This document shows, one piece after another, positions 18,372-55,337 of a stretch of DNA of 64,000 nucleotides. The first letter of the stretch is position 1. Every line of letters starts with the position of its first letter. Both the position numbers and the translations under genes were made by a program. The notes beneath the pieces were generated by a model. The model was not told the DNA's origin. It saw nothing but the letters and a program-made list of their open reading frames with translations, and searched no databases. The stretch spans positions 134,919 to 198,918 of the forward strand of contig OY970123.1 of NCBI GenBank assembly GCA_963705905.1. Reading direction: 5' to 3'. The stretch is from an uncultured Chloroflexia bacterium (GTDB lineage: Bacteria; Chloroflexota; Dehalococcoidia; GIF9; UBA5629).

Positions 18372-18404
18372 TAGATGAGAAATCTTTTTTATATAAATGG
18401 AAAG

Positions 18405-19265: not shown

Positions 19266-19398
19266 AATGATCCTACTTGACGTGATAATAAACTCGTTAT
19301 GGAATCCCGTTTCTATTAAACCGCTATTTTAGATTATTATGGATACGGCTAACTTTTTTATCTGAATTTTCCAGCCTCAGTGGCTCCCTCCCGTTTAG

Positions 19399-21702: not shown

Positions 21703-21747
21703 AGCATTTAACCTTCAACTCTAATGATACGTGACTGCTATCCGATT

Positions 21748-22716: not shown

Positions 22717-22868
22717 AAAACCTCACATTATTTCTTTTGAACAATTCCTCAAGCATGGTGTCTGCTTTGCTTCCGTACATCGTTTTGTTTTCACAAGTGC
22801 TACTTTCTTACTTAATGATCGCTTAAGAATTTTAAGGGAAATCTCAACAACAGATTATAAGTGTTTTT

Positions 22869-23435
22869 TTAATAACTAAAATTTTGGGATTCTATCCTTT
22901 TTAGCCATTCTGTCAATGTTTGAGCAGATTGATCCTTCTGTGTTACAGTTGGATTTTTTATGGGCCAATTGATTCCAATCTCAGGATCATTCCAACGAAT
23001 CCCTGATTCACATTTATTGTTATAGACGCCAGTACAAAGGTATTGTACCTCGGCATAGTCGCTCAACACGCAAAACCCCCGGGCAAATCCAGCAGGAGCC
23101 CAAACCTGGATTACGTTTTCTTCGGATGCCACAGTTCCAAACCATTTTCCAAGCGTGGGAGACCCTTTTCGTATATCGACCGCAACTAGGAATGCCTTTC
23201 CACGTGTAACGCGCATGAGCTTTCCCATTGGCGGATCCCATTGGAAGTGAAGCCCACGCAAAACTCCTTTAACCGACCCAGAGTGATTCAGCTGAACAAA
23301 TGCATCTGGAAGTCCCAGATTCTTAAACTGATCCTGCCTGTAGACTTCGAAAAAAAAACCTCGTTCATCTCGAAATATTTCCGGAATTACTATGACCACT
23401 TCGTCAATCGATGTTTTTTCAGTGGTTAACTCCAA
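22869..23435 (-). CDS. rfbC: dTDP-4-dehydrorhamnose 3,5-epimerase
   Basis: IPEIFRDERGFFFEVYR...RGLHFQ. Cupin RmlC signature, 188 aa. Confidence 0.85.
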   Translation of the reverse strand: MELTTEKTSIDEVVIVIPEIFRDERGFFFEVYRQDQFKNLGLPDAFVQLNHSGSVKGVLRGLHFQWDPPMGKLMRVTRGKAFLVAVDIRKGSPTLGKWFGTVASEENVIQVWAPAGFARGFCVLSDYAEVQYLCTGVYNNKCESGIRWNDPEIGINWPIKNPTVTQKDQSAQTLTEWLKRIESQNFSY

Positions 23436-23550
23436 TTTTTTACCCTCCTAAACTGACTGCTTATTCTCATTGAAGCTTGGTACAGCAATTGCTTTTTTGG
23501 ATAGTCTCCCTACCAATGTTTAAGATATGCGAAAGGGTTGGACCCAATGT

Positions 23551-24306
23551 CTAGCAATGCCCATTTATTCGTTCCTTGATAATGACCTTCAGTATTTTCC
23601 ATCCATCTTTAAAGGTATGAAGTTTTCCTTTCCCGGAGCGCCTTTTATGTTCCCAGCACGGTATCTCAACTATTTTCAGCCGTTTTTTCCGGGCTTTAAT
23701 AAAGAGCTCTATCTCCATCTCAAACCCATCAGTCTTAAGGTCCATATCAGATATAGCGTTTTTCCAGAATGCGTTGTAACCGTAGGTGATATCAGTGAAT
23801 TTACCTCTGTAGAGCATATTTGCCAGCAATGTAAACATTGTGTTACCAAACATCCTTATTATCGGCATATCCTTTGTGCCGCCGCCAAGAACGAAGCGGG
23901 ACCCTTTGGCAAAATCAAAGCCGTTGTAGAGTGGAATTATAAATAGCGGTAATTCAGAAATATTCATTGATCCATCAGCATCCATTATGCAAACTATATC
24001 GCCCCGTGCTGCCTTTATACCCGCCTTTATAGCGTCCCCTTTGCCCTTTCCTTTCTGATAAATGACTCTCAAATCCGGATACAATTGTCTGGCAACCTCG
24101 ACAGTATCATCAGACGAATTGCCATCGATCAGCATAACTTCATGAATATAGTCGGGCACTTCAGGTAGAAGATATTTCAAATTGGAGGATTCGTTTAATG
24201 TAGGTATCATGAGAGTAACTTTGAGCGCATTCTTAGTAAACGCTTTATATAATAGTTCAGAATAAAATCTACTATCCGTTTCTGCAGGCCGTGTTAGCGT
24301 ATCCAT
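23551..24306 (-). CDS. GT2 glycosyltransferase, polyprenyl-phosphate sugar synthase-like
   Basis: VTLMIPTLNESSNL...LIDGNSSDDT...IMDADGS, 251 aa. Confidence 0.8.
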   Translation of the reverse strand: MDTLTRPAETDSRFYSELLYKAFTKNALKVTLMIPTLNESSNLKYLLPEVPDYIHEVMLIDGNSSDDTVEVARQLYPDLRVIYQKGKGKGDAIKAGIKAARGDIVCIMDADGSMNISELPLFIIPLYNGFDFAKGSRFVLGGGTKDMPIIRMFGNTMFTLLANMLYRGKFTDITYGYNAFWKNAISDMDLKTDGFEMEIELFIKARKKRLKIVEIPCWEHKRRSGKGKLHTFKDGWKILKVIIKERINGHC

Positions 24307-24336
24307 GATATGCCCCCTGTACCTTCAACTGTAAAT

Positions 24337-25245
24337 TCATGAATTTAATCTACTGGATATAAAACTGAATGTTTTTTCGGCCTGTTCTTTGCTAGATACG
24401 CCGACAGCTACACCATAGATGTTAGGTAATCCATCAAGATAGCTCCAGGCCTGTTCCAGCGTAATCAAACCGCCAGCCAAAATAGCGAAAATGATAATAT
24501 CAAATCCATCTGCATTGTTTAGTGCCTTCTCTGCCTCTGTTTTGGATGGATTCATTTGCATGCCGATTGCATTAAGGGGAGTTGTTAACATTATATTGTC
24601 CGGCTTCATATCCCATTGCCTGAATTTTTCCAGTAAGAAGGGAAGATTGCGTGTGTGAAAACCGGGCCTAATATCTAATTCATTCATCGCATCTACGTGT
24701 GAATTAAATAACCATTGCATATCCAGCGCCAACGCCATATCCGTCACTACCTCATGAATAAAAATGCAATCGAGTTCTGCTTTTTTACCGGCGGCGGCTT
24801 TAATTCTGCCCGCCTCATAATAAGCGTACGCTTTAAAAGCAGATCCGGGATCAACAGTCAAAGCTCCTTTAACCCCGTTGACGATCGCTTTATAATTTCC
24901 CGATAGCACAATTTGCGTGGCTATCATCCTTGCCAAACCCACTATTCCTCCTAGCGAAACCGCCAATCGCACATATTCATAAGCATAAGGAATGAATGCG
25001 TAGAGTTTGGGTGAGGAACTGAATTGATATTTGCGAAGAAGGCGCAAAATGGATAGTGTTGTTTCATCTACTGTAAACGTAAATCCTCCGGCGCCGTTAT
25101 TAATAGCTGCCGCCACTATTCCGGCAGCATATTCCGGCTCCCGGATTGCCTGGCCCCTTTGATTCGCCCTATCCTGGGAAACGTGGCTTACTCCATGGAA
25201 TGGATTATCGCCAACCAATGATAATTTCCGTTTTGAATCAGCCAT
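24337..25245 (-). CDS. Hypothetical protein in the sugar-modification cluster
   Basis: 302-aa ORF with coding-like composition. Overlaps the start of the downstream oxidoreductase by 8 nt, suggesting co-translation. No motif recognised. Confidence 0.4.
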   Translation of the reverse strand: MADSKRKLSLVGDNPFHGVSHVSQDRANQRGQAIREPEYAAGIVAAAINNGAGGFTFTVDETTLSILRLLRKYQFSSSPKLYAFIPYAYEYVRLAVSLGGIVGLARMIATQIVLSGNYKAIVNGVKGALTVDPGSAFKAYAYYEAGRIKAAAGKKAELDCIFIHEVVTDMALALDMQWLFNSHVDAMNELDIRPGFHTRNLPFLLEKFRQWDMKPDNIMLTTPLNAIGMQMNPSKTEAEKALNNADGFDIIIFAILAGGLITLEQAWSYLDGLPNIYGVAVGVSSKEQAEKTFSFISSRLNS

Positions 25246-26245
25246 GATGCCCCATTTTTAATATTTTCTCGATAATAAGGTCCGTGTTCGCCGCGCACGA
25301 AAAATCGGAACTGGTTGCATTCCCACTATTTAACGAATCAACAAAGTGTCTGTCCTCATGATAATAGTCAGATTCAGCCAGAAAGAAGGGCACGCCACCT
25401 TCGAGCTCAGGTCTCATTTTATTTACAGATTCCTTATTTGTATTTGAATGGAACTCAAATAGGTCTTCCGTAACATTAATTTTGCCCAGTGTGCCAATAA
25501 CATTAATGCCTATTTCGGGTAATCGATAGTTTGCCCTGGACCAGGAAGCATCGAATGTACCTTCACTGCTGTTACTACAGTTAATTTTTACATGGGCCGA
25601 ATCAACATAACTCAGCTGAGCATTATTTTTCATGGTTAATTCTGCACTTAAAACATCCATGTCTCCGAGCATCCATAACATCATGTCCAGAGCATGGCAA
25701 CCTATGTCACGAAGGACGTCTCCCCGGGCGAATGCCTGGGGGATAAAGTCCCCGTTTGAGCAGAAATCAGATGAATAAGAATGTCCCGCAAATGATGTGA
25801 CTTTCCCTAATTTCCCTTCATCTATATAGGATCTGGCCATTTTAAATGTTGGTGCGAAGCGTTTCATATAGCCGACCATGGTAATGCCCTTGTTTTGTTC
25901 TGCCAGTTCGCAGAGCTCGTTTGATTGGAGATGATCAAAGGTAAACGGTTTTTCGACAAATATATTGTTGGAGATACCTTTTTCATAAATCGTAGTAATA
26001 ACAGGATAGTGAGTGGCTGCCGGCGTAGTGACATACACAGCATCAATTTGAGCGCCTTTAAGCTCCTTTACGTTTTTCACTAATGGGATTCCGGATAGCG
26101 CCCGCTCTCCGAACATGCGAATTAGGCTGTTAGTTTCACAAATGCAAGAGATTTGAACATCCGGCATGCTGCTCAAAATACTCGCATGCAGGAGTCCCAT
26201 TTTCCCCAGGCCGACCAATGCAATCTTTTTCAATCTGCTGTCCAT
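25238..26245 (-). CDS. Gfo/Idh/MocA-family NAD(P)-dependent oxidoreductase
   Basis: IALVGLGKMGLLHA N-terminal Rossmann fold, 335 aa. Typical sugar dehydrogenase architecture. Confidence 0.8.
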   Translation of the reverse strand: MDSRLKKIALVGLGKMGLLHASILSSMPDVQISCICETNSLIRMFGERALSGIPLVKNVKELKGAQIDAVYVTTPAATHYPVITTIYEKGISNNIFVEKPFTFDHLQSNELCELAEQNKGITMVGYMKRFAPTFKMARSYIDEGKLGKVTSFAGHSYSSDFCSNGDFIPQAFARGDVLRDIGCHALDMMLWMLGDMDVLSAELTMKNNAQLSYVDSAHVKINCSNSSEGTFDASWSRANYRLPEIGINVIGTLGKINVTEDLFEFHSNTNKESVNKMRPELEGGVPFFLAESDYYHEDRHFVDSLNSGNATSSDFSCAANTDLIIEKILKMGHHG

Positions 26246-42455: not shown

Positions 42456-42812
42456 TCAAGCTACTTCGATGCCCTCAATGCGGAACTCGGTACCTGAGAT
42501 CATCTCGTAATTTTTCACTGAGCAGTTTGGACAGGAAATATCCTCGTTAACCAGACGGTCCCGGTCGACTTCAAATTCGGTACCGCATACTCGGCAATTG
42601 AATACAATTGGATTGACGATGACCAGGATTTCGGCCTCTTCGGCCAAAGTCCCTTTCCGGATAAAGTTGAAGTAATATTGAAGCCAATCGCGGTTGATAT
42701 CACGCAGTGCACCCAGGCGCAGGACGATCGTTAAAACCTTTTGGGAATTAGTCTTTCGGGCATACGACAGAGCGGTATCCAGTATGTCCTGTGTCAAAGA
42801 GAGCTCATGCAT
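42456..42812 (-). CDS. hypA: Hydrogenase nickel-incorporation protein HypA
   Basis: MHELSLTQDILDTAL N-terminus. C-terminal CxxC-x13-CxxC zinc site, 118 aa. Confidence 0.8.
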   Translation of the reverse strand: MHELSLTQDILDTALSYARKTNSQKVLTIVLRLGALRDINRDWLQYYFNFIRKGTLAEEAEILVIVNPIVFNCRVCGTEFEVDRDRLVNEDISCPNCSVKNYEMISGTEFRIEGIEVA

Positions 42813-42832
42813 AAATTCGAGTCGTGTCCGCG

Positions 42833-43942
42833 CTACGACTTAGCCTGCGCCCGCCTGGTCCTGTCGGCCTCCGCTTTTTCACGCCCCATCCTTTCCTGGT
42901 TATCAAAAAACGTATTATCCTGCGGGATCGTCAATTGTTCATCAGGCTTTCTCTCAAGGACCAGCGCTCCGCTGGGACAGGTGGTAACACACAGGCCGCA
43001 GCCAAAACACCTTGCTCTATTGTACACAGATTTATTTTCCGGGTTGACGGTCATGGCCTTCATGGGACAGCGCTCCGCACATTTACCGCAATTGATACAT
43101 ACCATCTCGTCCTTGGTGCACTTATAATTGCTCCAGGACTCGAACCCTGTGCCCTGTTCAATTTTGGCGCCGATCAGAATGCCGCAGTGGCATTTAGCGC
43201 AGTTGCAGAATCCCGAGCACTCCTTAGAGTGGGACATCTGGACGAATAGTCCTGCACTATCGTCTTTATGCAGGACCTCAAGGGTCTGTTCGATCGTTAA
43301 TACATGTGGATTACCGATTTTTGATTCAAGCATAAATTCTGCCATTCGGCCAAAGGCTATGCACACGTTTAAATTTTCGGTGCAGCTGCATGATTTCCTG
43401 GCGAAGAGGGCTATCTTCCGGCAGGCGCAGTCATTGGCAACGATCAGCGTCTGCCTTTTGATGGTCGCCTCGATATCATCATAGGGCAGCAGTTTTCCAT
43501 CTCTAACCGTATCGGGTCGGATTGGAACGATTCGCGCTATGGGCAGACGATAATCGAGGAGCGTTTTTCCAAATCCGTCGATGTAAAACTGTCGCATATT
43601 TGCGGCATCCTGCTGGTCAAACTTGTCCACCCGGAATTCCCACAGGCCGTGGATGAAAGGGATGATGCGATATTTTTTCTCATTGCCATGCCGTTCCCAG
43701 TACAGGAGGCCTTTTTTCGACATCGATTCCAACTGGGCCTGGGCATCTTTAAGGCTTATGCCCATATGATCGGCTACCTGCTCAGGTGATTGCAGGCCCG
43801 GTTTGAACTTGATGAAAAACTCCGCGTCCGCCTCGTTGAAAACCTTTTTCAGGAACGCCGTTTCCGAGCCCTTTTCGGTTTTGGGATAGCCCTTGGTCAT
43901 GCCGTCCAGTTTCTGTCGCAGCCTTTCATATACATCTGCCAT
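42833..43942 (-). CDS. Multi-cluster iron-sulfur protein with N-terminal winged-helix-like region and C-terminal 2x[4Fe-4S] ferredoxin domain
   Basis: CINCGKCAERCP and CFGCGLCVTTCP ferredoxin motifs, plus extra Cys clusters (CACRK...CSCTENLNVC, CSGFCNCAKCHCG). 20 bp upstream of hypA on the same strand. Confidence 0.65.
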   Translation of the reverse strand: MADVYERLRQKLDGMTKGYPKTEKGSETAFLKKVFNEADAEFFIKFKPGLQSPEQVADHMGISLKDAQAQLESMSKKGLLYWERHGNEKKYRIIPFIHGLWEFRVDKFDQQDAANMRQFYIDGFGKTLLDYRLPIARIVPIRPDTVRDGKLLPYDDIEATIKRQTLIVANDCACRKIALFARKSCSCTENLNVCIAFGRMAEFMLESKIGNPHVLTIEQTLEVLHKDDSAGLFVQMSHSKECSGFCNCAKCHCGILIGAKIEQGTGFESWSNYKCTKDEMVCINCGKCAERCPMKAMTVNPENKSVYNRARCFGCGLCVTTCPSGALVLERKPDEQLTIPQDNTFFDNQERMGREKAEADRTRRAQAKS

Positions 43943-44123
43943 TTTAATTTCGCATCTCCTGTGATTTCATAAGTAAAAGATAATGCTTGTTTAAACGCTA
44001 TTGTCGTCTCGTGATCCTGAAGATTTGGAGTATAATCTTATCTTTCGACCATTGTCAAAGTTATTACAGGATATCGATAGGGCAACCTAGTGATCTGATA
44101 TGGATCAATGCGTTTCTTTACTT

Positions 44124-45089
44124 TTATAGCGGCCTGAAATACCCCACGCCCACTCCAACAGCCAACAAGAGACCAAGGCAACCGTGAAGTTGTGACGACA
44201 AATATAAAGCCATCACAAAATCCTTTCGTTCTCGTCCCTGCCATACCATCCTTAATGCCTTTACCGCCAGGGGTAGTGCTAGAAATGGCAAAAGCACTAC
44301 AAATCCAAACTCTTTGATAGTGGCAAGTGCCAGCACTATAGCAAACTCCGCTGTTATTAAAAGAGTCCATTCCCACCGTCCAAAACCACGCCCCCACAAG
44401 GTAATAAAAGTCGTCTTACCGGTAGCCTTATCTTCTTCCAGGTCGCGAAGGTCGTTAGCCACTAAAATAGAGGTAACGCTGCACGCAATGGGAATTGAAA
44501 GCCAAAAAGCGTTGACGGTGAGGACGTGACTCTGAACGTAACATGAACCAAGGACCATAACCAGACCCATAAAAATAAAAACTAAGGGATGCCCTAACCC
44601 GATATTCCCCAGAGGCCTGGGTCCGGCTGCATAGCAATAGGCTGCCGCAGCACTAAGGAAGCATACTATTAAAAGAGGCCACCCCGTTATGAGGACCAGA
44701 TATAAACCGATAAGACCGGCTATGCCAAAACAGAATATGGCGCCACTTTTGACTTCTTTGCTGGATAAAGCTCCCGAAGCAATAACCTTGTAGGGTGCTA
44801 GCACCTTATTTTCCGAGTTTGTAGTGGTATGGTCGTAATACTCGTCCACAAGATTGGAAGCCACCTGTACCAGTATGCTCGCAACAAGCACGAGTATAAA
44901 AATTTCTAAATTGGCTTGTTTTTCACGGAATGCCAGGGCAGAGCCTACCAATATAGGAGCCACAGCAGCCGTAAGCGAAAATGGGCGTGATGCCCAGTAC
45001 CAGGCCCGCACTTGCTGCCATCCTTTTGAAGTCGTGCCCTGGAGCGGCTTATCGGAAGGCTTTGCTGTTCTGTTCATAGAGGTTTTCAT
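44124..45089 (-). CDS. menA: UbiA-family prenyltransferase (MenA-like 1,4-dihydroxy-2-naphthoate prenyltransferase)
   Basis: Asp-rich motifs NLVDEYYD and NDLRDLEEDKATGK, ~9 TM helices. Confidence 0.75.
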   Translation of the reverse strand: MKTSMNRTAKPSDKPLQGTTSKGWQQVRAWYWASRPFSLTAAVAPILVGSALAFREKQANLEIFILVLVASILVQVASNLVDEYYDHTTTNSENKVLAPYKVIASGALSSKEVKSGAIFCFGIAGLIGLYLVLITGWPLLIVCFLSAAAAYCYAAGPRPLGNIGLGHPLVFIFMGLVMVLGSCYVQSHVLTVNAFWLSIPIACSVTSILVANDLRDLEEDKATGKTTFITLWGRGFGRWEWTLLITAEFAIVLALATIKEFGFVVLLPFLALPLAVKALRMVWQGRERKDFVMALYLSSQLHGCLGLLLAVGVGVGYFRPL

Positions 45090-45238
45090 GCAGCGCTCTC
45101 CCCAGCTCTAATGTCATTGTTGTCTTTTGCTTCGTTTTCTGTCTGATTTAACCCAAATACACCCGGCAGTAATCGATTCAATATTCAACTAATTTAGGCT
45201 GGGGATTGAATTTCCAGGTAAAGATTTGATGTTCCGTA

Positions 45239-45706
45239 CTATTCGTCTTCCCACTGGTATTTGTCTTTCCTGTCTTTTAACTTACTTGATCCGCAGGCAA
45301 AGCAAATACCATTATGGCAGCAGAGTGCCTGGCCGCATTCAGGACATTTCCATTTATTTTCTTCCGCCCTAATGAATTGTTTAACGCCATGTACCTTAAT
45401 GAACAGGAGATTTTCAACCATACTCATTCTGAAAAAGGTTTTATAGCGCTGGTCGAGGTGGTGAAGATTATTGCAGGGGAAATCCTGACATTCATAGCAG
45501 TATTTTATTTGTCCATTCAAGAGCGGCGGACATTTCTTTTTGATGAGGGCACACTTTCTATCTCTTGGCCTGCAGCCGGCGCAGTAGGACATTCGAATTC
45601 CCTTGCTTCTCACATCATGTTTAAAGGCGAGATACCTGCTGCATATTGCGCAGTTCATGCCGCAGGGGGCAATCAGCTCTTCATTCATTATAGCTTGAAC
45701 TATCAT
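45239..45706 (-). CDS. Cys-rich zinc-finger protein (DUF3795-like)
   Basis: CGMNCAICSRY, CAGC, CYECQDFPC, CPECG motifs, 155 aa. Confidence 0.6.
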   Translation of the reverse strand: MIVQAIMNEELIAPCGMNCAICSRYLAFKHDVRSKGIRMSYCAGCRPRDRKCALIKKKCPPLLNGQIKYCYECQDFPCNNLHHLDQRYKTFFRMSMVENLLFIKVHGVKQFIRAEENKWKCPECGQALCCHNGICFACGSSKLKDRKDKYQWEDE

Positions 45707-45966
45707 AGCAAATGGTAAAGTAGATAATCCACTTATACGGAAAGGATGCCGAGATTGTTATGGCCGTAACTAGCCTACTCAGATAATTAACGATCCACTA
45801 AGGCTTCATTGGCTACGCTCGATCGTGGCCCTTTCCATATAGCTGTGATGGCATTTTCAATACATTTCAATACATGGAGTGCGGTGGCCGGTTTCGCTTG
45901 ACATCTCCAATGATTGATGTTATGATTTGACTATCTTTTAGATACTTACTTTTGGAAAGAGAATAG

Positions 45967-46653
45967 ATGGCACCGATATATGCTCACTACTGTCCGGTAG
46001 CGCATGCGTTAGAAATGGTTGGTGACAGGTGGTCTTTGCTCATTATTCGAGACCTATTGCAGAAACCACAACGGTTTACCGACTTGTTGCGCAACTCGAA
46101 CAATATTACCCCTAAATGGCTTACAATCAGGCTTCGACAATTGGAGCAAGCCAAGATAGTTGAGCGGGAAAGACAGAGTGACCGGCGCGAAGTCTGGTAC
46201 AGGTTGACACCATCAGGACAAGACCTCCGTCCGGTAGTGGAGGCATTGTGGGACTGGGGTTTGCAATACGCAATGTGGCCGCCACGCCCAGGAGAAGTGG
46301 TCCATCCTGACTGGGCGGTGAATACGTTAGCGGCCTCGCTGAACAAGCGTGGCAGGAAATTGCCTAAGCCGATGAACTGGTTACTCAATTTCACGTCGGG
46401 CGGCCCCTATACCGTGTCTTTTGATGGTGCACGATGGTCAGCCAAAGAGGGTGATATCGAGAATCCCGATATAGTAGTAGCAACCTCCCCTGAAGCATGG
46501 GCAACGTTCCTCGCCTTGAAGCGAGAAGAGCGTAGACGGCATGCGCAGACCATGCAGATAGCCGGCTCATCCGAAAGTGTCGAGGAGTTCCTACGGACGC
46601 TCGGGGCAGGAGAAGAAAAACACGGCCAAATCCTGAACACTGAACCGGGCTGA
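45967..46653 (+). CDS. HxlR-family transcriptional regulator with C-terminal extension
   Basis: CPVAHALEMVGDRWSLLIIRDLL...RFTDL matches the HxlR wHTH, 228 aa. Confidence 0.7.
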   Translation: MAPIYAHYCPVAHALEMVGDRWSLLIIRDLLQKPQRFTDLLRNSNNITPKWLTIRLRQLEQAKIVERERQSDRREVWYRLTPSGQDLRPVVEALWDWGLQYAMWPPRPGEVVHPDWAVNTLAASLNKRGRKLPKPMNWLLNFTSGGPYTVSFDGARWSAKEGDIENPDIVVATSPEAWATFLALKREERRRHAQTMQIAGSSESVEEFLRTLGAGEEKHGQILNTEPG

Positions 46654-46727
46654 AGGGTTCGACCATTTTGTATATCGGGCCCAAGTCGCAGTAGAAACAC
46701 ATTAGCACGGATTATCTCGGAGGCACT

Positions 46728-47774
46728 ATGGAACAGATGGAAGAACATATCAAGGATACAGCTCTTGACATGGGATACGAGGCATGTGGAATCGTTAGGG
46801 TTTCGGCGATATGCGGTTTCGAACAGAAACTGAATGAAAGAATCGAGCGAGTTCCTGAGGCAAATCCATTTTACCAGAATTTCCATCGATTTGCCCATCC
46901 TGAAGCAACTCATCCGTGGGCGAAATCGATCATCGTCTGCGTAAGAAATCACGGGAAATACAAGGTCCCCAACAACCTGGAAGGCTTGATAGGGAAGAGC
47001 TATCTCTTTGACTATCGAACGGATGTGCTTTCGAAAGATTACTTGAATAGCCTTAGATTTGAAGTATACCTAAAAGATAACGGGCTTGATGTCGCCACCG
47101 AGAGGAGATTCGGCATTACAGCACTTCGCTGGGCAGCGTCGGAAGCCGGTTTGGGACTGATCCGCAAGAACAACTTCTTTTATACAAAGTCAGGGTCGTG
47201 GGTGTCTCTGGAAGCCTGGCTGATCGATCGGGAATTAGAATCCATCGAAAAGCCGACGATTAAACCATGTCCCGAGGGCTGCACTCTGTGTATGAAGAAT
47301 TGCCCCACATCCTCCCTATCCCAACCTTACACGATGAATCCTTCAAGCTGTATATCCTTTTTAACAACGTTTGGGGGATCGGATTCAACTAAGGACATGT
47401 TCGGTACAAAGATCGGTAATTGGATCTACGGGTGCGACGTCTGCCAAGATGTGTGCCCGTTTAACAAGAATGTTCGCGGAGCAGCCGAGGAATTCCCGGG
47501 GCTGACCGAATTGAGCCAACATATCTCACTGGAGAAGCTTGTTTCGGCGGATTACAGTTTCTTAGAAAAAACGGTTCAACCTAAATTTTGGTACATCAGA
47601 CAAAACGATCTTTGGAAGTGGAAGGTAAACGCCATCAATGCTATGGTCAATAGCTACGAGAACAAATATCGGGAATCAATCTTCGATGCCCAAAATGATA
47701 GCCAGCCCAATGTGAGGGAAATGGCTCAGTGGGCGATCCGAAGACTGGGGTTACAGTCGGTTAGAATCGCATGA
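46728..47774 (+). CDS. queG: Epoxyqueuosine reductase (QueG)-like Fe-S protein of the reductive-dehalogenase superfamily
   Basis: Two Cys motifs (CPEGCTLCMKNCP, CDVCQDVCPFN). C-terminal HEAT-like segment (NVREMAQWAIRRLG) as in QueG, 348 aa. Confidence 0.6.
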   Translation: MEQMEEHIKDTALDMGYEACGIVRVSAICGFEQKLNERIERVPEANPFYQNFHRFAHPEATHPWAKSIIVCVRNHGKYKVPNNLEGLIGKSYLFDYRTDVLSKDYLNSLRFEVYLKDNGLDVATERRFGITALRWAASEAGLGLIRKNNFFYTKSGSWVSLEAWLIDRELESIEKPTIKPCPEGCTLCMKNCPTSSLSQPYTMNPSSCISFLTTFGGSDSTKDMFGTKIGNWIYGCDVCQDVCPFNKNVRGAAEEFPGLTELSQHISLEKLVSADYSFLEKTVQPKFWYIRQNDLWKWKVNAINAMVNSYENKYRESIFDAQNDSQPNVREMAQWAIRRLGLQSVRIA

Positions 47775-48421
47775 GGAACGTAACTACCGCTGGGATTACC
47801 GTCTGCGGCCACACCTATGACAGATATCTTGGTATGATAAAAGATTTCCACGGGCATGTCGCCCCGGGTGTGGTTCTTGGCGGACTCATGTTAGACATAG
47901 CATGTAGGAACCTTCCGAAAGGGCAGTACTTTGACGCATTATCCGAAACCAGATCATGCCTTCCGGATGCCATCCAACTGCTCACACCATGCACAGTGGG
48001 CAACGGCTGGCTGAGGATTGTAGATTTGAGCAAGTTTGCCCTGTCATTGTTCGAGAAATACACTGGCAACGGAGTCAGAGTATTCGTCGACAGCCAGAAG
48101 CTTGAAAGGTGGCCTGAACTAAAGACCTTCTTTTTCAAGCTGATACCCAAGAAAGAGCAGGATAGCAAAGCGCTTATGGTTGAGATCCGTTTGGCCGGTA
48201 CCTCAATTTTCGCCGTCGAGAAAGTAGTGGTCGACCTGGACTCCGTCAGATCATCAAAGCGCCGCGCGTTTGCTATCTGTCCAGGGTGCGGAGAAGGCTA
48301 TCCAAAAGACGACGGCGACATTTGCATTTCCTGCCAGGGCAGGTCTCCGTATCTATCCTGTGTCAGGCGGCCTGATCAACCGGAAGGCGATGCCAATGCT
48401 TCAGATGTGAAAAGAATTTAG
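47771..48421 (+). CDS. FmdE/FwdE-family protein with C-terminal zinc ribbon
   Basis: HGHVAPGVVLGG motif of the FwdE domain. C-terminal CPGCG...CISCQG. Start overlaps the upstream stop. Confidence 0.6.
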   Translation: MRNVTTAGITVCGHTYDRYLGMIKDFHGHVAPGVVLGGLMLDIACRNLPKGQYFDALSETRSCLPDAIQLLTPCTVGNGWLRIVDLSKFALSLFEKYTGNGVRVFVDSQKLERWPELKTFFFKLIPKKEQDSKALMVEIRLAGTSIFAVEKVVVDLDSVRSSKRRAFAICPGCGEGYPKDDGDICISCQGRSPYLSCVRRPDQPEGDANASDVKRI

Positions 48422-48434
48422 GAGGTTACTGAGA

Positions 48435-50702
48435 ATGTCGTGGAAGAAAACTACCTGTGTGCTTTGCCCCATGAGCTGCGGCCTCGAACTCCTGGTTGAA
48501 GATAATCGTATCACCAAAGTCCGCCCGGACAAAGACAGCCCGGTCAGCGAAGGCTACATATGCCGCAAGGGTATGAACGTTGCCTTTCACCAGCACAATG
48601 CAGACCGGGTGCTGTACCCGCTGAAGAAGGTGGGAAGCAAGTTCGAACGCGTATCCTGGGACCAGGCAATCAGCGAGATTTCCGCAAAGCTCAAGCAAAT
48701 ACTTCTTCAGCATGGTCCGCGCTCCCTGGCCTCGCTGGCGGGCGGCGGAGAATTCAGCATTTACGGTGGAAGGTACCTGGTCCAATTTGTTCGCATGCTC
48801 GGCTCGCGTTATCAGTATTCGTCTGCCAACCAGGAATTTGCGGGCCGGTATTGGGCGCATGGACTGACATTGGGGAGCCAAGCATTGGAACTGCCCCCTG
48901 ACTATGAGCATACCGAGATGCTGATGGCAATTGGCTGGAACGGAATGATGAGCCACCAGATACCCCAGGCGCGGAGAGTACTGACGAGAATCTCCAAGGA
49001 CCCGGACAGGCTCCTGGTGGTAGTCGACCCGCGTCTGTCGGAAACCGCGAAGATAGCGGATATACACCTGGCGCTTCGTCCCGGCACTGATGCGCTGCTC
49101 TTGAAATCGATGATCGCCATTATCCTGAAAGAGGGACTGTACAACAGGGAATACATCCAGGCGCATACGGAAGGGTTTGATAAGATCCTGCCCTGGTTTG
49201 CCGGTTTCGATGTGGATGCCGCGCTTAGGGTCTGTGAATTGGAGTACGGCCTGGTCCTGAAGGTATGCCGCGAATTCGCCCGGCGCCGCTCCTGCCTGCG
49301 TGATGACCTTGGCCTGCTGATGGGCCGGCATAGCTCGTACTTATCGTACCTGCTGGTCGTGCTACTGGCCATCTGCGGCCGGATAGGCGTGACCGGTGGC
49401 AACTACCTGACAGGTGGGAGAATATACTCCGATCCCAATGATCCCGGAACATGGCGTACGGCAGTGACCGGCATACCAGCCATTGCAGGGATGTTCCCTC
49501 CCAATGTCTTGCCGGAAGAAATCGCCAATGACCGCCCGGACCGGCTCAGGGCTGTTTTTGTGTGCGGCGCCAATCCGTTGCGGTCTTATGCGGATACGAC
49601 TGCGTACGAGGATGCGTTCTCACGGCTCGACCTGCTGGTAGTGACCGAGATGGTGATGAGTGAGACCGCTGCCCTTGCCCATTATGTCCTTCCCTCGAGG
49701 TCGGGATATGAATCATGGGACAGCCCCTTCAACCTTGTTCTTCCTTCCAAGCCCTACCGCCAATCATCGGAGAGTGCTGGGGAGTGTTCACTGGAATCCT
49801 ACGTGCGGATGCGGCGGCCGGTGGTTGAGCCTGAAGGGGAAAAGAAAGAAGCGGGCGAGATCTACACGCTGCTGGCTGAAGCCATGGGCTTAATCCCCGA
49901 GTTTCCGCAATCGCTATATCAGGCCGCAGAAAGCGGCGACCTGAAGGCATACAGGGACGCACTTGGTGATTACGCGATGCAGGACCCGAAGAATGCCCGG
50001 AACCTGCCATTCGTCACGGCAAAAACCCTGGGCAAGGCAACGGGTTCAGCACACCTTGCCCTCTATTTCACCTCCCTTTTACAGAGGTCGCAGAGAAGGC
50101 AGGAAGAGGCCGCCAGGGCAGGATTCGCCGAAGGGCCGGACCAGGGGCTAGCTATATATGAGGCCGTAACAGGCCGCCAGGAAGGAGTTGCAGTAGGGAT
50201 ACAGGAAATAGGGGAAAACCTGAAGAAACTGGCCACAAAAGAAGGCAGGATTCAACTTTACTCCAGGGAGATCGAGGACTGGATAAAGGGGATCAACTCG
50301 GCCGAAGAAGAAGAGCGGCTCAAAGCTGATGCCAGGTACCCATTGATTCTGATGGCAGGACGGCATATGGACATGAATGCCAATACCGCTATGAGGGACC
50401 CTGCATGGAATACAGGCCGGCGGCCCTGCACGCTGGCAATGAACCCGGCGGACGCAGAAAAGCTGGGACTGGCTGACAGGCAGTTGGTGAGGGTCGTAAC
50501 CGAGGCCGGTGAGGAGACAATAGAAGTCGAGGTGACCCTCGATGCGAGAAAGGGTCAGGTCATAATACCGCACGGGTTTGGACTGGTATACAATGGCGTT
50601 AAACACGGCGCGAATGTGAACCGACTGACAAAAAACACGAACCGGGACTTCGTTGGGACGCCCATTCACCGCTATATTCCCTGCCGCGTGGAAGCAGCAT
50701 AG
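48435..50702 (+). CDS. Molybdopterin-dependent oxidoreductase catalytic subunit (MopB superfamily, Fdh/YdeP-like), cytoplasmic
   Basis: N-terminal CVLCPMSCGL...C [4Fe-4S] motif. 755 aa, MGD-binding architecture. No Tat signal. Confidence 0.8.
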   Translation: MSWKKTTCVLCPMSCGLELLVEDNRITKVRPDKDSPVSEGYICRKGMNVAFHQHNADRVLYPLKKVGSKFERVSWDQAISEISAKLKQILLQHGPRSLASLAGGGEFSIYGGRYLVQFVRMLGSRYQYSSANQEFAGRYWAHGLTLGSQALELPPDYEHTEMLMAIGWNGMMSHQIPQARRVLTRISKDPDRLLVVVDPRLSETAKIADIHLALRPGTDALLLKSMIAIILKEGLYNREYIQAHTEGFDKILPWFAGFDVDAALRVCELEYGLVLKVCREFARRRSCLRDDLGLLMGRHSSYLSYLLVVLLAICGRIGVTGGNYLTGGRIYSDPNDPGTWRTAVTGIPAIAGMFPPNVLPEEIANDRPDRLRAVFVCGANPLRSYADTTAYEDAFSRLDLLVVTEMVMSETAALAHYVLPSRSGYESWDSPFNLVLPSKPYRQSSESAGECSLESYVRMRRPVVEPEGEKKEAGEIYTLLAEAMGLIPEFPQSLYQAAESGDLKAYRDALGDYAMQDPKNARNLPFVTAKTLGKATGSAHLALYFTSLLQRSQRRQEEAARAGFAEGPDQGLAIYEAVTGRQEGVAVGIQEIGENLKKLATKEGRIQLYSREIEDWIKGINSAEEEERLKADARYPLILMAGRHMDMNANTAMRDPAWNTGRRPCTLAMNPADAEKLGLADRQLVRVVTEAGEETIEVEVTLDARKGQVIIPHGFGLVYNGVKHGANVNRLTKNTNRDFVGTPIHRYIPCRVEAA

Positions 50703-50767
50703 AAACGACGGCGAGAGGCCCCATTATTGTCTGAATATGAACATAGTTTGAAGATCGCGTAGCAATA

Positions 50768-51391
50768 ATGATCGCAGCAAAACCAGCGTCCATCATCCTG
50801 TGCGGCGGCACGACGCGCCGTTTCGGCGGGAATAAAGCCAATGCCTCCGTTGGAGGCCGCCAGGTAATTGAGCGTATCTTCAAGGTCCTCGAGCCGCTTT
50901 CCAGCCGGATTATCGCGGTCACTTCGGGTGAAAACACTGACGTCCGCATACCGGATGGGGCTGTGGTTGTCGTTGACATCTATCCCGGAAGGGGACCCCT
51001 GGGAGGCATCTACACCGGACTTCTCCATGCACATTCCGACTTCGCCCTGGTGGTCGGGTGCGACATGCCTTTTCTTAATGCCGGGCTGATCAGCTTTATG
51101 TTCAGCCTGGCTGATGGGTTCGACGCGGTTGCTCCCCGGATTGGCGGCAGGTATATAGAACCGCTCCATACTGTCTATACACGGGCATGCCTGGCCAGGA
51201 TAGAAAGTCAACTTAAAAGCGGGCAGCAGTCTATATGGCCGGTGCTTAGGGAGCTTAATACCCGGTATATGGAGAAAAAGGAGTACCTCCCGCTGGATCC
51301 CCGCCTTCTGTCCTTCTTCAATATCAACGTCCCGGAAGACCTCGAGCGCGCTAACCGGATAGCTGCCCAACTGGATACCGATATTGTCTAA
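50768..51391 (+). CDS. mobA: Molybdenum cofactor guanylyltransferase
   Basis: ILCGGTTRRFGG...K motif. GCDMPFL motif, 207 aa. Confidence 0.75.
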   Translation: MIAAKPASIILCGGTTRRFGGNKANASVGGRQVIERIFKVLEPLSSRIIAVTSGENTDVRIPDGAVVVVDIYPGRGPLGGIYTGLLHAHSDFALVVGCDMPFLNAGLISFMFSLADGFDAVAPRIGGRYIEPLHTVYTRACLARIESQLKSGQQSIWPVLRELNTRYMEKKEYLPLDPRLLSFFNINVPEDLERANRIAAQLDTDIV

Positions 51392-51469
51392 TGGGTACGT
51401 CCTGGCAGCAAACTCCATTGTAAGAATATACCGGATTAATTGGAGCTAAGATAATTATCTGGAGGGATG

Positions 51470-51515
51470 GTGGGCCATTCTGGATTCGAACCAGAGACCC
51501 CAGTCTTATCAGGAC
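51470..51515. repeat. attL: duplicate of the tRNA-Ile 3' half
   Basis: gtgggccattctggattcgaaccagagaccccagtcttatcaggac is an exact 46-bp copy of 55274-55319. Confidence 0.7.
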
Positions 51516-51886
51516 GATTCCCCTGTCGATTTGATTTCATCTCTTCTGGACCAGCTCGTAGGACTGGGTGAGATAGCGCGCCAACTTAAGCTTGCGTTCG
51601 GCTCCAACGGGCACCCAGCGGCGGAAGTCCGCAACATTATGGAAGCAATAGCCAGAGACCGAGGATAGTCTCTGCCTTTGTTGGCTGTCGGAAGTTCGAA
51701 TCCATACGGTTGGGCCAGTGGTAATTTTTCAACACGAAAGAGTTGAGACATTTCTGGAAATTAGCCTCTCATAGTCACCCATCAGCTATCAGGGGAGTAC
51801 GTAGAAGGGAGCTTTGCAAAGAGCAGAGGCAGGTACTACCTTTGACTGTGGCTGTGATCTAATATAGGCTAACAAGATTCCATGTA

Positions 51887-52510
51887 CTAGAGCTTGTCAG
51901 CAGTGGTATCGTTTATCCAACATGGCAATCGGATAGGGAATCTTACTTCTCGAATCCTGATGTTACCCATTGCCCACCTATGCCCGGCTCTAGGTTTTAC
52001 ACAGGTCACGCAAATAAAGGATACCTTGCACGGTTTGTCGAATTTAATAGTTATGCCACGGCCAGCATATTCCTCAATAGTATTAAACTCACAAACCGGA
52101 CCATGTTCACTATCGATCGTAACTTTCCATTCTTTGGGATAATCAAGGGTGTGGCCTGTGCCTTGCAGGAACGTTATTTCTTGAAATACTCTATCCCTAC
52201 CATATTCTCTGCGCTTGCGCATATCTAAACAAAAATAATCGTTCTCCTTCTGTTCATCGGGACTTACCCAGAATAGAGTTTCCTTGCCGCGTCTTGTTTC
52301 TTCAAGAAAACTAGCTGTCAGTTCCCACTCGGAACAACTTGGCCATAAACGGTCTTGCAGGAACCAAAAAACTGTCAACAGGGTAGCGACTACCCCTACT
52401 AACACTACAGCCCCCACTTTGCAGACCTCCCATACAAGGGAACCAGCAAGGCCAAGAAATGCCCCCCAAAATAGCAAAGCCATCTGAGAAGTAACCCATC
52501 TACTGCGCAT
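51887..52510 (-). CDS. Hypothetical membrane-anchored protein (element cargo)
   Basis: 207-aa ORF with two N-terminal hydrophobic helices. No known motif. Confidence 0.4.
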   Translation of the reverse strand: MRSRWVTSQMALLFWGAFLGLAGSLVWEVCKVGAVVLVGVVATLLTVFWFLQDRLWPSCSEWELTASFLEETRRGKETLFWVSPDEQKENDYFCLDMRKRREYGRDRVFQEITFLQGTGHTLDYPKEWKVTIDSEHGPVCEFNTIEEYAGRGITIKFDKPCKVSFICVTCVKPRAGHRWAMGNIRIREVRFPIRLPCWINDTTADKL

Positions 52511-52815
52511 ACTTCTAGCTCCCTTAGCTTTTGGGAGGATTGTAAGTTATCATACACCACAAGGCTGGCTCATGACAATCACTAAGTCCAAGCGCCGCTG
52601 TTTGGGAACCTGTAACTTTGGCGATTCCAGCTTCCGCCATCCTGACCGTGGCCCTAATTCCCCGATTCATTAGGTATTGAATATCCTCGCCAGATTCAGG
52701 TGCCCTATGACGCGCAATTTCTTCAAGTATAAGGTTTTCTTGAGCAATATATGTATGTCATTAACACAGAAAGGAGAATTTCATAAAGGAGAAATGTTAT
52801 GATGTGTGAACGAAA

Positions 52816-53370
52816 ATGGATCCATGTGTCTCAATACTCAGTTCGTTGCGTGTGATTTTTCAGCCCGTGCTATCAGTTATCAAGTATAAACGGAGTAAAC
52901 CAATAATAACTTTTGGAACTCCGTACTCTGAAGATGATTATATGGGTAGAACTTGGTATATTCCTATTTCTAATGCCAGGACTGATAGGTGGTGGAAGGC
53001 GGCTTTCTGCCCAAACAAGGACGTTCCGAAATGTCATATACATGGTGATTTTACTCTTTGCGGCAAGTTGCTAAATACCTATGATTGGAAAGGGGACATA
53101 GCACCGATTAGTCTTCCGGCAAATTCAGAACCATATTTGCTGGAATGTATAAATAAAAGAGAAGGATATGAAAAATGTGGTATTGTGCCGGTTCCAATGA
53201 GTGATAATGAGCGTTTACCACTGTCAAGCATGCCTATTATCGTTATTTTCTCTGTTATAGAAGGTGGTATTATACTGGGTACTCACAAATACTACATCAA
53301 GAATATAGGTGTACATTTAGATGATTTGATAGTTTACGGCGAGGATCAAACTCCTGTGCTAGTGACATAG
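52816..53370 (+). CDS. Hypothetical protein (element cargo)
   Basis: 184-aa ORF in the AT-rich interior of the element. No known motif. Confidence 0.4.
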   Translation: MDPCVSILSSLRVIFQPVLSVIKYKRSKPIITFGTPYSEDDYMGRTWYIPISNARTDRWWKAAFCPNKDVPKCHIHGDFTLCGKLLNTYDWKGDIAPISLPANSEPYLLECINKREGYEKCGIVPVPMSDNERLPLSSMPIIVIFSVIEGGIILGTHKYYIKNIGVHLDDLIVYGEDQTPVLVT

Positions 53371-53520
53371 AAACATTCGGCAAAAACCGAGAGCGTGTGT
53401 TATGTGTCTCTTTTTCTCCAGGAAGCACTTGCAGAATGACCATCCGATCTAGACGACAGATTCACGTCAGCTTTGTCCAGCTTAATGCCCTCCGGAATCA
53501 GGTTGTCCACCAATACACGA

Positions 53521-53650
53521 CCTGTCAAGAAATGACTGGCACCACCCGTTCAACACGCGTTCAACATCCGTTCAGTGCCTGTCAAGAAATGACTGGCAAC
53601 ATACGTTCAACGCCTGTCAAGACTGACTGTCAACAACCGTTCAACAACTA
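53521..53650. repeat. Iteron-like array: 3x 21-bp CCTGTCAAGAAATGACTGGCA-type repeats interleaved with 5x CGTTCAAC
   Basis: Exact 21-mer at 53521 and 53578, a variant at 53613. CGTTCAAC(A) occurs five times. Confidence 0.65.
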
Positions 53651-53737
53651 GCACAGTGGGCTTGGCACGGCGGTTAATCCCCTTCTCAAGATTGTCCCTT
53701 GAACAATTGTAAGGATTTGTGTTAATCTCTTATAAGC

Positions 53738-54100
53738 ATGGCAGAGAAGTACAAGTCCATAGGGCTAAAAGAGACAGAATACGAGAAGTTGGCTGATGCT
53801 AAGCGGAGCTTCGAGCAACGGCTAGGGAGACCATTGGCGTGGCCACTATTCCTTCAAATGCTGGCAAGCATTCGTATCTTAGAACGAGAGGAACACACGA
53901 TGCACCTGGAAGAGGATGAGCAGCCAATGACTGAAGCGGAAATGGCAGAAGCAGGTGTGAAGAGAGAACTGGGGATACCGATAATGCTACCGGAAGAACA
54001 AATTGAGGATATCGCCAATAGAGTGGCAAATAAGATATTGGAGAAGATAGGAAAACAAAATAAGGCAGCTCTCCCACTGGCAAGGCGCTGCCGGGCCTAG
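53738..54100 (+). CDS. Hypothetical small protein upstream of integrase (possible excisionase/regulator)
   Basis: 120-aa ORF, charged and helical, ending 19 bp before int. Function not recognisable. Confidence 0.4.
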   Translation: MAEKYKSIGLKETEYEKLADAKRSFEQRLGRPLAWPLFLQMLASIRILEREEHTMHLEEDEQPMTEAEMAEAGVKRELGIPIMLPEEQIEDIANRVANKILEKIGKQNKAALPLARRCRA

Positions 54101-54119
54101 TGACCATAAGGAGGCTCTT

Positions 54120-55337
54120 ATGACCACCAAGAGGAAACTAGCACGACAGGTACTACCGAATCAAATACTTCACTTCCCGCCGGACAGTCACCGTCCAGTA
54201 ACCGAGTTTCAGTATCCCAACTATGGGATTCCAAACAGGCCGCTTGTCGCCATTCAAGATGTCCGGGCGGCTTTAGCGGCGGACGATCCCCAGGTCGCTC
54301 TAAATAAACTTGGCATTGTGTCTGCTGATTCTGGGGCCACGCTCAATGAATACCTGAATCACTGGACTGTCACTTCTTTCCACTACCGTTCCCTCATTGA
54401 CCAATATATCCGGCCGGACCTTGGCCACTACCGTCTCAAGCAGCTTTCGAAGGACGCAATTACGGCATGGGTGAATGGCCTGAAGTCCGTGAAAAAGCCC
54501 ACTGAGGGCTTGGCCGTTGGTACGAAAAGGCGCGTACTCCGGTGCCTGCACAAGGTGTTGGCAGACGCGGTCGAGGCTCACCGGATTGCCATGAACCCAG
54601 CTGACGGTGTCAAGGTGTTATCTGATGGCGATGACGAGGGCGACGTCAATCCATTTACAGAAGAGGAATTGGCTACCCTTCTGGAGGCGAATACTGCCTA
54701 TCGTGACTACTACGCTGTTCTTGCCTGGACCGGGCTTCGCAGGGGTGAGTTGATCGGCCTTAGACGAAAGGATTTCCGACGTGATAGGGAGACAGGCAGT
54801 TACTTCCTGATAGTCGAACGGAGTTACGACGCTCGGACTCACAAGATGCGCGTATGCAAGAACCGCGAGAAGCGGCGCGTAGACCTCTGGCCAGACACAG
54901 CCAAGATAATCTCCGCCCGCCTGCGAGAGTCAGGCCAGCCGGATGATATCATCTTCGCTGGGAAGGCTGGGCGGCCGGTCAATCCAACGACTCTGACACA
55001 TGCCATTCGAGACACACTTCCAGCGTTGGGATTGGCACATCATCGTCTGCACGACTTGCGACACACACATGCCACTATGCTGTTGGCTAGTGGGTGGGGT
55101 GTAGTCGACGTTGCAAACAGACTAGGCCACAAAGACCCATCCGTAACGCTCCGTGTCTACGCCCACTGCATTCCAGGACACCAGGCGGGCCTGATTGCTG
55201 CCAAACCGAACCTTGCAAAAGCACAGTCTAACGGCACAGTCTTCGAACCTAAATCCGAGTTGTCTAAGATCAAGTGGGCCATTCTGGATTCGAACCAGAG
55301 ACCCCAGTCTTATCAGGACTGTGCTCTAACCAACTGA
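54120..55337 (+). CDS. int: Tyrosine-type site-specific integrase
   Basis: RBS AAGGAGG. C-terminal catalytic box HDLRHTHATMLLASG...LGHKDPSVTLRVYAH (R..HxxR..Y). The 3' end runs into the antisense tRNA-Ile. Confidence 0.85.
   Translation: MTTKRKLARQVLPNQILHFPPDSHRPVTEFQYPNYGIPNRPLVAIQDVRAALAADDPQVALNKLGIVSADSGATLNEYLNHWTVTSFHYRSLIDQYIRPDLGHYRLKQLSKDAITAWVNGLKSVKKPTEGLAVGTKRRVLRCLHKVLADAVEAHRIAMNPADGVKVLSDGDDEGDVNPFTEEELATLLEANTAYRDYYAVLAWTGLRRGELIGLRRKDFRRDRETGSYFLIVERSYDARTHKMRVCKNREKRRVDLWPDTAKIISARLRESGQPDDIIFAGKAGRPVNPTTLTHAIRDTLPALGLAHHRLHDLRHTHATMLLASGWGVVDVANRLGHKDPSVTLRVYAHCIPGHQAGLIAAKPNLAKAQSNGTVFEPKSELSKIKWAILDSNQRPQSYQDCALTN

Follow-up and report, generated by a model that had tools for sequence, protein, structure and literature searches.

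The five-gene cluster analysed here lies at positions 45967-51391 of a 64-kb window (the whole stretch of DNA examined, from contig OY970123.1 of an uncultured Chloroflexia bacterium) and encodes an HxlR-family regulator, a QueG-like iron-sulphur protein, an FmdE-family protein, an oxidoreductase of the MopB superfamily and a MobA-like protein. A preliminary description of this DNA, made from the sequence alone, had proposed five consecutive genes on one strand; all five open reading frames (ORFs) lie on the forward strand at the coordinates given below, and their families were confirmed with Pfam and NCBIfam. They are spaced, in gene order, by 74 nt, a 4-nt ATGA overlap, 13 nt and 65 nt, which is typical of a single transcription unit. 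The same five genes stand in the same order in a sister assembly, GCA_049510995.1 (labelled Dehalococcoidia; 99.4-100% identical). An Rfam scan of the 64-kb window returned three tRNAs only, with no molybdenum cofactor (Moco) riboswitch and no cobalamin riboswitch. The features of the operon are as follows.

45898-45926, forward strand: promoter-like site, TTGACA-17 nt-TATGAT, its -10 box extended by TG; with 11 of 12 matches it ranks first in 45200-51700
45932-45944, forward strand: putative HxlR operator (palindrome TATCT-TTT-AGATA), lying after the -10 box and before the ribosome-binding site
45967-46653, forward strand: HxlR-family winged-helix regulator, 228 aa (PF01638)
46728-47774, forward strand: QueG-like protein of the RDH/QueG superfamily with a HEAT-like C-terminus, 348 aa (Fer4_16; TIGR00276 below cut-off)
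47771-48421, forward strand: FmdE-family protein, N-terminal core and treble-clef zinc finger, 216 aa (PF02663, PF23475)
48435-50702, forward strand: cytoplasmic MopB oxidoreductase, 755 aa (three Pfam domains)
50768-51391, forward strand: MobA-like molybdenum cofactor guanylyltransferase, 207 aa (NTP_transf_3)

An invariant glutamate in a cytoplasmic MopB family

The MopB protein matches the Pfam domains Molybdop_Fe4S4, Molybdopterin and Molydop_binding at 61.3, 88.8 and 66.5 bits (cut-offs 22.7, 24 and 26.8). Its N-terminus reads MSWKKTTCVLC, with C8 as the first iron-sulphur cysteine, and the fmdE stop codon lies 13 nt before its start; a signal peptide is therefore impossible and the enzyme is cytoplasmic, in line with the earlier proposal and with the lack of a Tat twin-arginine signal peptide in this N-terminus. 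None of the following models reached its cut-off with MopB: the formate dehydrogenase (Fdh) alpha model TIGR01591 (247.2 bits against 666), NasC (182 against 1100), PhsA (177 against 694), the FdhF/YdeP family TIGR01701 (42 against 582) and FwdB (43.5 against 328). Among solved structures, F420-dependent Fdh, HDCR FdhF and acetylene hydratase come closest, at E about 1e-42 when the single sequence is the query and at 1e-60 to 1e-63 when a family profile is used. Of the likeness to Fdh and YdeP suggested at first, the Fdh half thus stands, widened to acetylene hydratase, and the YdeP half falls with the TIGR01701 score.

In an alignment of 44 family members from several phyla, C8, C11, C15 and C43 of the [4Fe-4S] site and Lys45, the C-x-K-G lysine shared with Fdh, are invariant, as are many residues of the dinucleotide-binding domain. 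Glu134 is likewise invariant (44/44), and in both single-sequence and profile alignments it lies opposite the selenocysteine (Sec) of 9t1s, the Cys of 7qv7, 7bkb and 9vap, and Cys141, the tungsten ligand of acetylene hydratase; the alignment of the active-site residue that the preliminary description had suggested thus returned Glu at the Sec/Cys position. The His that follows Sec or Cys in formate dehydrogenases is replaced by Phe or Leu in all 44 sequences (Glu134-Phe135 in the window), and the Sec/Cys ligand and His of those enzymes are accordingly present neither in MopB nor in the other aligned members. According to a survey of the MopB superfamily, the ligand is Sec/Cys, Ser or Asp, or is lacking; the survey nowhere uses the word glutamate, and it records that cofactor-less lineages arose several times (PMC10100899). 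An AlphaFold2 model of MopB built from 39 close homologues was too poor (pLDDT 53.7) and was not used.

MopB shares features with three kinds of characterised enzyme and differs from each. It resembles the cytoplasmic formate dehydrogenases (E. coli FdhH, 1aa6; HDCR FdhF, 7qv7; F420-dependent Fdh, 9t1s) in its size of about 700-750 aa, in having no signal peptide, in the CxxCxxxC...C [4Fe-4S] site and C-x-K-G lysine and in its three Pfam domains, but differs in Glu134 for Sec/Cys, in Phe/Leu for His, in its sub-cut-off score and in having no partner genes. Acetylene hydratase of Pelobacter acetylenicus (2e7z) is likewise a monomeric cytoplasmic MopB protein with one [4Fe-4S] cluster, but both its tungsten ligand Cys141 and its water-activating Asp13 are replaced, by Glu134 and Pro12 respectively, the segment CQSCDINC corresponding to CVLCPMSC. 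The nitrate reductases NarB and NasA, soluble and monomeric MopB enzymes with a single [4Fe-4S] cluster that draw electrons from a separate ferredoxin, provide a working model for electron input, whereas their Cys ligand, their nitrate-binding residues and the NasC score set them apart from the window protein.

An exhaustive search of 1.84 billion cluster representatives returned 1056 MopB relatives at E up to 1e-30; a different search gave 4278 hits at 90% clustering. The ligand column of 106 aligned full-length representatives holds Glu in 40, Asp in 59 and Cys in 6, an acidic residue therefore occupying it in 99/106, and the closest relatives all belong to the Glu group. Database names of the relatives are generic ('anaerobic selenocysteine-containing dehydrogenase' at JGI), none of ten representatives scanned against NCBIfam reaches a cut-off, and a literature search on FmdE with molybdopterin oxidoreductase and HxlR, and on uncharacterised MopB clades, gave nothing on the Glu-type family. 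MopB belongs to a group of thousands of proteins, none of them studied, that falls within no curated Fdh, YdeP or FwdB family. A separate set of Asp-type cytoplasmic MopB proteins (P0361-P0510; about 690-760 aa, motifs TxCRICEAxCG and SQD) is larger than the Glu-type set; it too reaches no NCBIfam cut-off, and one of its members comes from Egicoccus halophilus.

Gene neighbourhoods of MopB

Neighbourhoods were drawn from a scan of one genome per species, which gave 161 relatives; the best 80 loci (50-75% identity) were analysed, and these come from Dehalococcoidia, Syntrophales/Smithella, Desulfobacterales, Desulfarculales, Bacillota and Spirochaetota. ORFs of the loci were clustered and re-searched with tblastn, cluster representatives were compared with Pfam, and a gene was counted as a neighbour if it lay at most 6 kb from MopB. 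Two groups in the counts below need introducing: c5, a cluster of divergent QueG/RDH-superfamily proteins, and Fer369, a family of which the window holds a copy outside the operon.

42833-43942, reverse strand: Fer369, with a winged helix, a Cys-rich middle domain and a ferredoxin domain with two [4Fe-4S] motifs (model pLDDT 94.8)

Neighbours of MopB among these 80 loci:
FmdE: 20 (17 within 100 bp)
MarR-type regulator: 18
Fer369 family: 17 (13 directly adjacent)
HxlR: 14
Enoyl-CoA hydratase family: 13
c5: 12
OYE-type flavin reductase: 11
NMO: 8
DUF169: 7
FMN reductase: 6
MoCF_biosynth: 6 (4 also with MoeA)
MATE efflux: 4
MobA: 2 (L001 and L008)
The window's own QueG-like subfamily: 0

A regulator of the HxlR or MarR type lies within 6 kb of MopB in 32/80 loci, usually upstream, and fmdE stands immediately 5' of MopB in eight of the nine Chloroflexota loci with enough upstream sequence; four of these eight (L008, L011, L012 and L014) have the order HxlR-FmdE-MopB. 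No Fdh partner subunits were found near the MopB loci. The proposal that FmdE accompanies MopB is therefore upheld, and so is the co-conservation of FmdE and HxlR on which the preliminary description had staked its case, with MopB falling in no characterised Fdh clade. Two other parts of that description found no support in the form given, namely the QueG-type protein as MopB's partner and MobA as a conserved member of the module, given the absence of the former subfamily from these loci and the presence of the latter in just two. The uncharacterised cytoplasmic Mo/W module that it envisaged does exist as a conserved MopB unit outside the curated families, but its core is not the five-gene set: it is a regulator and MopB, with or without FmdE and a variable iron-sulphur partner.

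Further gene associations were seen in subsets of the loci. Downstream of MopB in six Dehalococcoidia (L008, L009, L011, L014, L015 and L019) stands a conserved pair, absent from the window, of a membrane protein of about 235 aa without a Pfam match and a THEP1-like NTPase_1. Several other loci (L006, L007, L016, L023, L042, L057 and L060) carry short OYE-type flavin reductases of about 372 aa with a Cys-rich C-terminus, and such loci also hold NMO, enoyl-CoA hydratase, acyl-CoA dehydrogenase and up to three Fer369 paralogues, which suggests that Fer369 proteins are shared electron donors for several types of reductase.

FmdE and MobA

Both parts of the FmdE call, the family and its zinc-binding domain, hold: the PF02663 core scores 122.2 bits and the treble-clef PF23475 51.2 bits, above their Pfam cut-offs, and the protein matches SYN_00638 of Syntrophus aciditrophicus (PDB 3d00) at E 3.1e-63. 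The fmdE start overlaps the stop codon of the QueG-like gene by 4 nt. With the FmdE/FwdE proteins of formylmethanofuran dehydrogenase operons (3d00, 2gvi, 2glz) it shares the two-domain architecture and an adjacent MopB catalytic subunit; it differs from them in that the neighbouring MopB is not FwdB and in its metal motif. FHGHxC is the metal-binding motif of the FmdE N-terminal domain (PMC2954224), whereas the window protein reads FHGHVA, with Ala for Cys, and 3d00 reads FHGYPA; the metal site seen in 2glz and 2gvi is therefore incomplete in the window protein.

In two loci (L017 and L054) the FmdE that adjoins MopB is fused to a molybdopterin-binding MoCF_biosynth domain (PF00994), an architecture also recorded in a structural paper of 2010, which found 13 of 208 FmdE genes next to fmd genes and noted that a chaperone role had been suggested (PMC2954224). 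Four Bacillota loci (L039, L044, L046 and L062) have no FmdE and carry a MoCF_biosynth/MoeA pair after MopB. The MobA-like protein scores 115 bits with NTP_transf_3, above the Pfam cut-off and in accord with the initial call, although it stays below the NCBIfam MobA equivalogs (NF001457, 135.1 against 164 bits; TIGR02665, 84.4 against 151.85 bits). Purified formylmethanofuran dehydrogenase, in the hands of Hochheimer in 1996 and of Wagner in 2016, reportedly came without FmdE. In view of the PF00994 fusions, the MoCF_biosynth/MoeA pairs, the adjacent MobA and the small share of FmdE genes beside fmd genes, a role in cofactor or metal delivery is the most economical for FmdE, which is thus likely to be a cofactor-maturation helper for MopB rather than a catalytic partner.

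The QueG-like protein and Fer369

At family level the QueG-type call is sound, with Fer4_16 at 58 bits, a match to PDB QueG 5d08 at E 2.6e-21 and a full-length match to TIGR00276 of 131.7 bits, which nevertheless falls short of the QueG cut-off of 200. The protein shares with QueG of B. subtilis (5d08) and S. thermophilus (5d6s) both [4Fe-4S] motifs (C181/185/188/192 and C236/239/243, all invariant), the HEAT-like C-terminus and an equivalent of Arg141, the arginine under the corrin ring, kept here as the invariant Arg134. The catalytic Asp134 of QueG is absent: the profile alignment puts Arg/Lys127 opposite it, the single-sequence alignment a gap. The substrate-orienting Gln220 lies opposite the invariant Thr214 in the profile alignment (roles of these residues in B. 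subtilis QueG from PMC5175355). With Asp134 and Gln220 replaced and the score below cut-off, the QueG-like protein is therefore not a bona fide QueG.

It differs from QueG further in its presumed control by HxlR and in forming a well-conserved family of its own in Clostridia, Negativicutes and Dehalococcoidia, with members 57-63% identical in cultured Clostridium, Sporomusa, Pelosinus and Propionispora. Members occur behind HxlR with no other cargo (L081-L083 and L169) or as solitary genes (Pelosinus, C. beijerinckii), and are joined to FmdE-MopB in the window and its sister strain only. Two other clusters from the MopB loci, c5 and c31, have QueG and RDH as their best sub-threshold matches, and c5 is 21% identical to the window's QueG-like protein over 230 aa (E 4e-9); the pairing of a QueG/RDH-type protein with MopB thus recurs at superfamily level only.

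Fer369 may be an electron donor to MopB. Its Cys-rich middle domain, with seven invariant cysteines, has no counterpart in the PDB. The window copy is a paralogue, 23-35% identical, of the copies that adjoin MopB, and in the sister strain it lies next to hxlR in divergent orientation. We considered it as the dedicated electron donor of the operon and downgraded this, as its orthologues travel with HypA and CobW and not with MopB. Fer369 and HypA form a conserved gene pair (42456-43942 on the reverse strand of the window, and L172, L173 and L174), followed by CobW in two loci and preceded by pyruvate:ferredoxin oxidoreductase subunits in one; Fer369 could be a metallochaperone-dependent iron-sulphur protein.

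The HxlR regulator and its putative operator

The regulator matches PF01638 at 78.1 bits (cut-off 20.8), confirming the HxlR call, and carries an extra C-terminal domain of about 120 aa beyond it. Seventeen orthologous HxlR proteins, 47-73% identical to the window copy, share this extension and an invariant Cys9. The C-terminal domain is possibly SCP2-like, the match (SCP2/Alkyl_sulf_C) being weak, below threshold and confined to one orthologue.

Most related loci have a TTGACA box 5' of hxlR at the position equivalent to that of the window's promoter-like site. The palindrome TATCT-N3-AGATA is exact in 7 of 17 hxlR leaders (the window, L012, L018, L022, L024, L029, which is the cultured Desulfatitalea alkaliphila M08but, and L081), with near matches in most others, and has a single exact match in the 64-kb window. 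The putative operator is kept in orthologous hxlR leaders whatever the cargo: in L081, whose HxlR is the nearest to the window copy (73% identical), the same box is followed by a QueG-like gene only, and the cargo found elsewhere behind this type of HxlR comprises OYE, MatE, FMN reductase, NMO, DUF169, Fer369, c5 and MopB. Distant HxlR proteins made up most of what the HxlR alignment found in metagenomes, and only L089-L093 were informative.

HxlR thus looks like the head of a modular regulon of reductases and efflux pumps, and in this it resembles the electrophile and quinone regulons run by HxlR/DUF24 and MarR regulators in Bacillus. The likeness draws on the regulons of the thiol regulators YodB, HypR and CatR of B. 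subtilis and RrpA/RrpB of Campylobacter, with which the window protein shares the winged helix, the N-terminal Cys, a putative operator in its own promoter and a cargo rich in reductases and efflux pumps. It differs from these regulators in its extra C-terminal domain and in the anaerobe-type cargo of Fe-S, Mo/W and flavin reductases.

Flanking DNA

A 3.76-kb integrative element (51516-55273) lies at a tRNA-Ile(GAT) gene downstream of mobA, bounded by exact 46-bp att repeats (51470-51515 and 55274-55319); it carries a tyrosine integrase (54120-55337), three 34-bp direct repeats (53521-53645) and three ORFs without a Pfam match. The sister strain (L170/L171) has nothing inserted at this site, the tRNA and the aminotransferase gene coming directly after mobA. 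We rejected the idea that the five genes sit inside a mobile island by tRNA-Ile, as the att repeats bound 51516-55273 only. On the other side of the operon, the 99%-identical sister strain lacks a segment at 44089-45846 that holds two reverse-strand genes, for MenA (44124-45089) and a DUF3795 protein (45239-45706); a 189-bp remnant of the segment (89% identity) is left in that strain, and its Fer369 and hxlR genes are divergent and about 0.6 kb apart. Positions 10000-26000 of the window, of low GC (0.38-0.43), encode polysaccharide-synthesis and membrane proteins (Polysacc_synt, DUF2206) unrelated to the operon.

Discussion

Taken together, these data lead us to favour, with moderate confidence, an inducible, HxlR-controlled operon that combines a Glu-type Mo/W oxidoreductase and its maturation factors with a separable QueG-like reductase. 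HxlR, the product of the first gene, would repress its own operon, probably by autoregulation, through binding to the TATCT-N3-AGATA box that overlaps the presumed transcription start, and may release the DNA when its N-terminal Cys or its C-terminal domain senses an electrophilic, oxidising or hydrophobic compound. The main cargo would be a monomeric cytoplasmic Mo/W-bisPGD oxidoreductase with Glu in place of the Sec/Cys metal ligand, for which MobA would make the guanine dinucleotide cofactor while FmdE may handle or insert the cofactor or its metal. Electrons would enter the N-terminal [4Fe-4S] cluster of MopB from a ferredoxin-like partner, and the enzyme would reduce or otherwise transform a small molecule, most likely an organic xenobiotic or oxidised metabolite and not formate. 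The QueG-like protein would be a second, separable iron-sulphur and possibly corrinoid reductase under HxlR control, not a tRNA epoxyqueuosine reductase, that joined the operon in this lineage.

Indirect support for Mo/W-bisPGD in MopB comes from the clustering of cofactor genes around it, namely MobA (in the window, L001 and L008), MoCF_biosynth with MoeA, and the FmdE-PF00994 fusions. Reduction of an organic xenobiotic or oxidised metabolite, which we propose with low confidence, is favoured because of the type of regulator, the co-regulated reductases and the efflux pump. Several points weigh against this picture. FmdE cannot be obligatory in cis, as 60/80 MopB loci lack it; the role of the TATCT-N3-AGATA box as an HxlR operator is putative, and that of Glu134 as a metal ligand presumed, each being read from sequence patterns. 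Moreover, c5 takes the place of Fer369 just 5' of MopB in the otherwise parallel loci L006 and L007, and neither a Fer369 nor a c5 protein is dedicated to the window operon, so the QueG-like protein might be what passes electrons to MopB, an iron-sulphur companion rather than an independent enzyme.

A bolder form of the same interpretation, in which Glu134 is a true Mo/W ligand, the family a large clade of cytoplasmic enzymes acting on xenobiotic or oxidised organic substrates, and FmdE a dedicated chaperone for cofactor or metal insertion, we put forward only tentatively, as it seems to us rather doubtful as a whole.

It is unlikely that a single multi-component Mo/W reductase or oxidase has the QueG-like protein, FmdE and MopB as its subunits or obligate partners. 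Their genes are translationally coupled or tightly spaced, and the divergent c5 and c31 proteins adjoin MopB in 12/80 loci at the position that Fer369 holds elsewhere, which fits a partner of variable type with two [4Fe-4S] clusters. Nonetheless, none of the other 80 MopB loci contains the window's QueG-like subfamily, whose members stand behind HxlR without other cargo or are solitary, FmdE-MopB occurs without a QueG-like protein in seven Dehalococcoidia loci, and FmdE, as recounted above, is said to be absent from purified formylmethanofuran dehydrogenase.

The two readings that deny MopB a redox reaction at a metal centre appear improbable to a similar degree. In the first, MopB would be an iron-sulphur electron-transfer or scaffold protein that no longer carries a Mo/W cofactor, like Nqo3, QrcB, ActB and FhcB; the lack of a Sec, Cys, Ser or Asp ligand would agree with this, as would the repeated origin of cofactor-less lineages (PMC10100899), but MobA, MoeA-like, MoCF_biosynth and FmdE-PF00994 genes cluster with MopB in several phyla, the C-x-K-G lysine and many residues of the dinucleotide-binding domain are invariant, and the prevalence of Glu or Asp at the ligand column (99/106) suggests selection there. 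In the second, MopB is a non-redox hydratase or hydroxyl-transfer enzyme like acetylene hydratase, with Glu134 as an acid/base residue. Acetylene hydratase is indeed among the top three solved relatives and enoyl-CoA hydratase-family genes are neighbours in 13 loci, yet its Cys141 and Asp13 are both replaced (Glu134 and Pro12), and the adjacent partners with two [4Fe-4S] motifs, Fer369 and c5, are frequent and point to electron flow. Least probable is an FdhF-type cytoplasmic formate dehydrogenase or CO2 reductase, with FmdE in the role that it has beside FwdB, since, for all that the best PDB and NCBIfam matches are F420-Fdh, HDCR FdhF and Fdh-alpha and relatives bear the selenocysteine-dehydrogenase label at JGI, the Fdh-alpha score is 247 bits against 666, the Sec/Cys position is Glu and the next His is Phe or Leu in 44/44 sequences, and regulators, ene-reductases and efflux pumps are the neighbours instead of Fdh partner subunits.

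The HxlR-controlled operon that we favour bears on several protein families. The annotation 'epoxyqueuosine reductase' is probably wrong for many genes of Clostridia and Negativicutes. The putative operator and the variable reductase and efflux cargo behind it point to a regulon for stress or xenobiotics in anaerobes of strict habit (Dehalococcoidia, Syntrophales and Desulfobacterales). The fmd operons were sequenced in the 1990s and the role of FmdE has been open since then; its adjacency to a second MopB family, together with the fusions to a molybdopterin domain, makes a role in maturation directly testable. Much of the cycling of elements in anoxic settings is driven by MopB enzymes, whose chemistry tracks the metal-ligating residue; the present family has Glu at this position, or Asp in more distant relatives. 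If the bolder interpretation is true, Glu would join Sec, Cys, Ser and Asp as a fifth kind of protein ligand in the MopB superfamily, and the long-unassigned FmdE family would gain a function.

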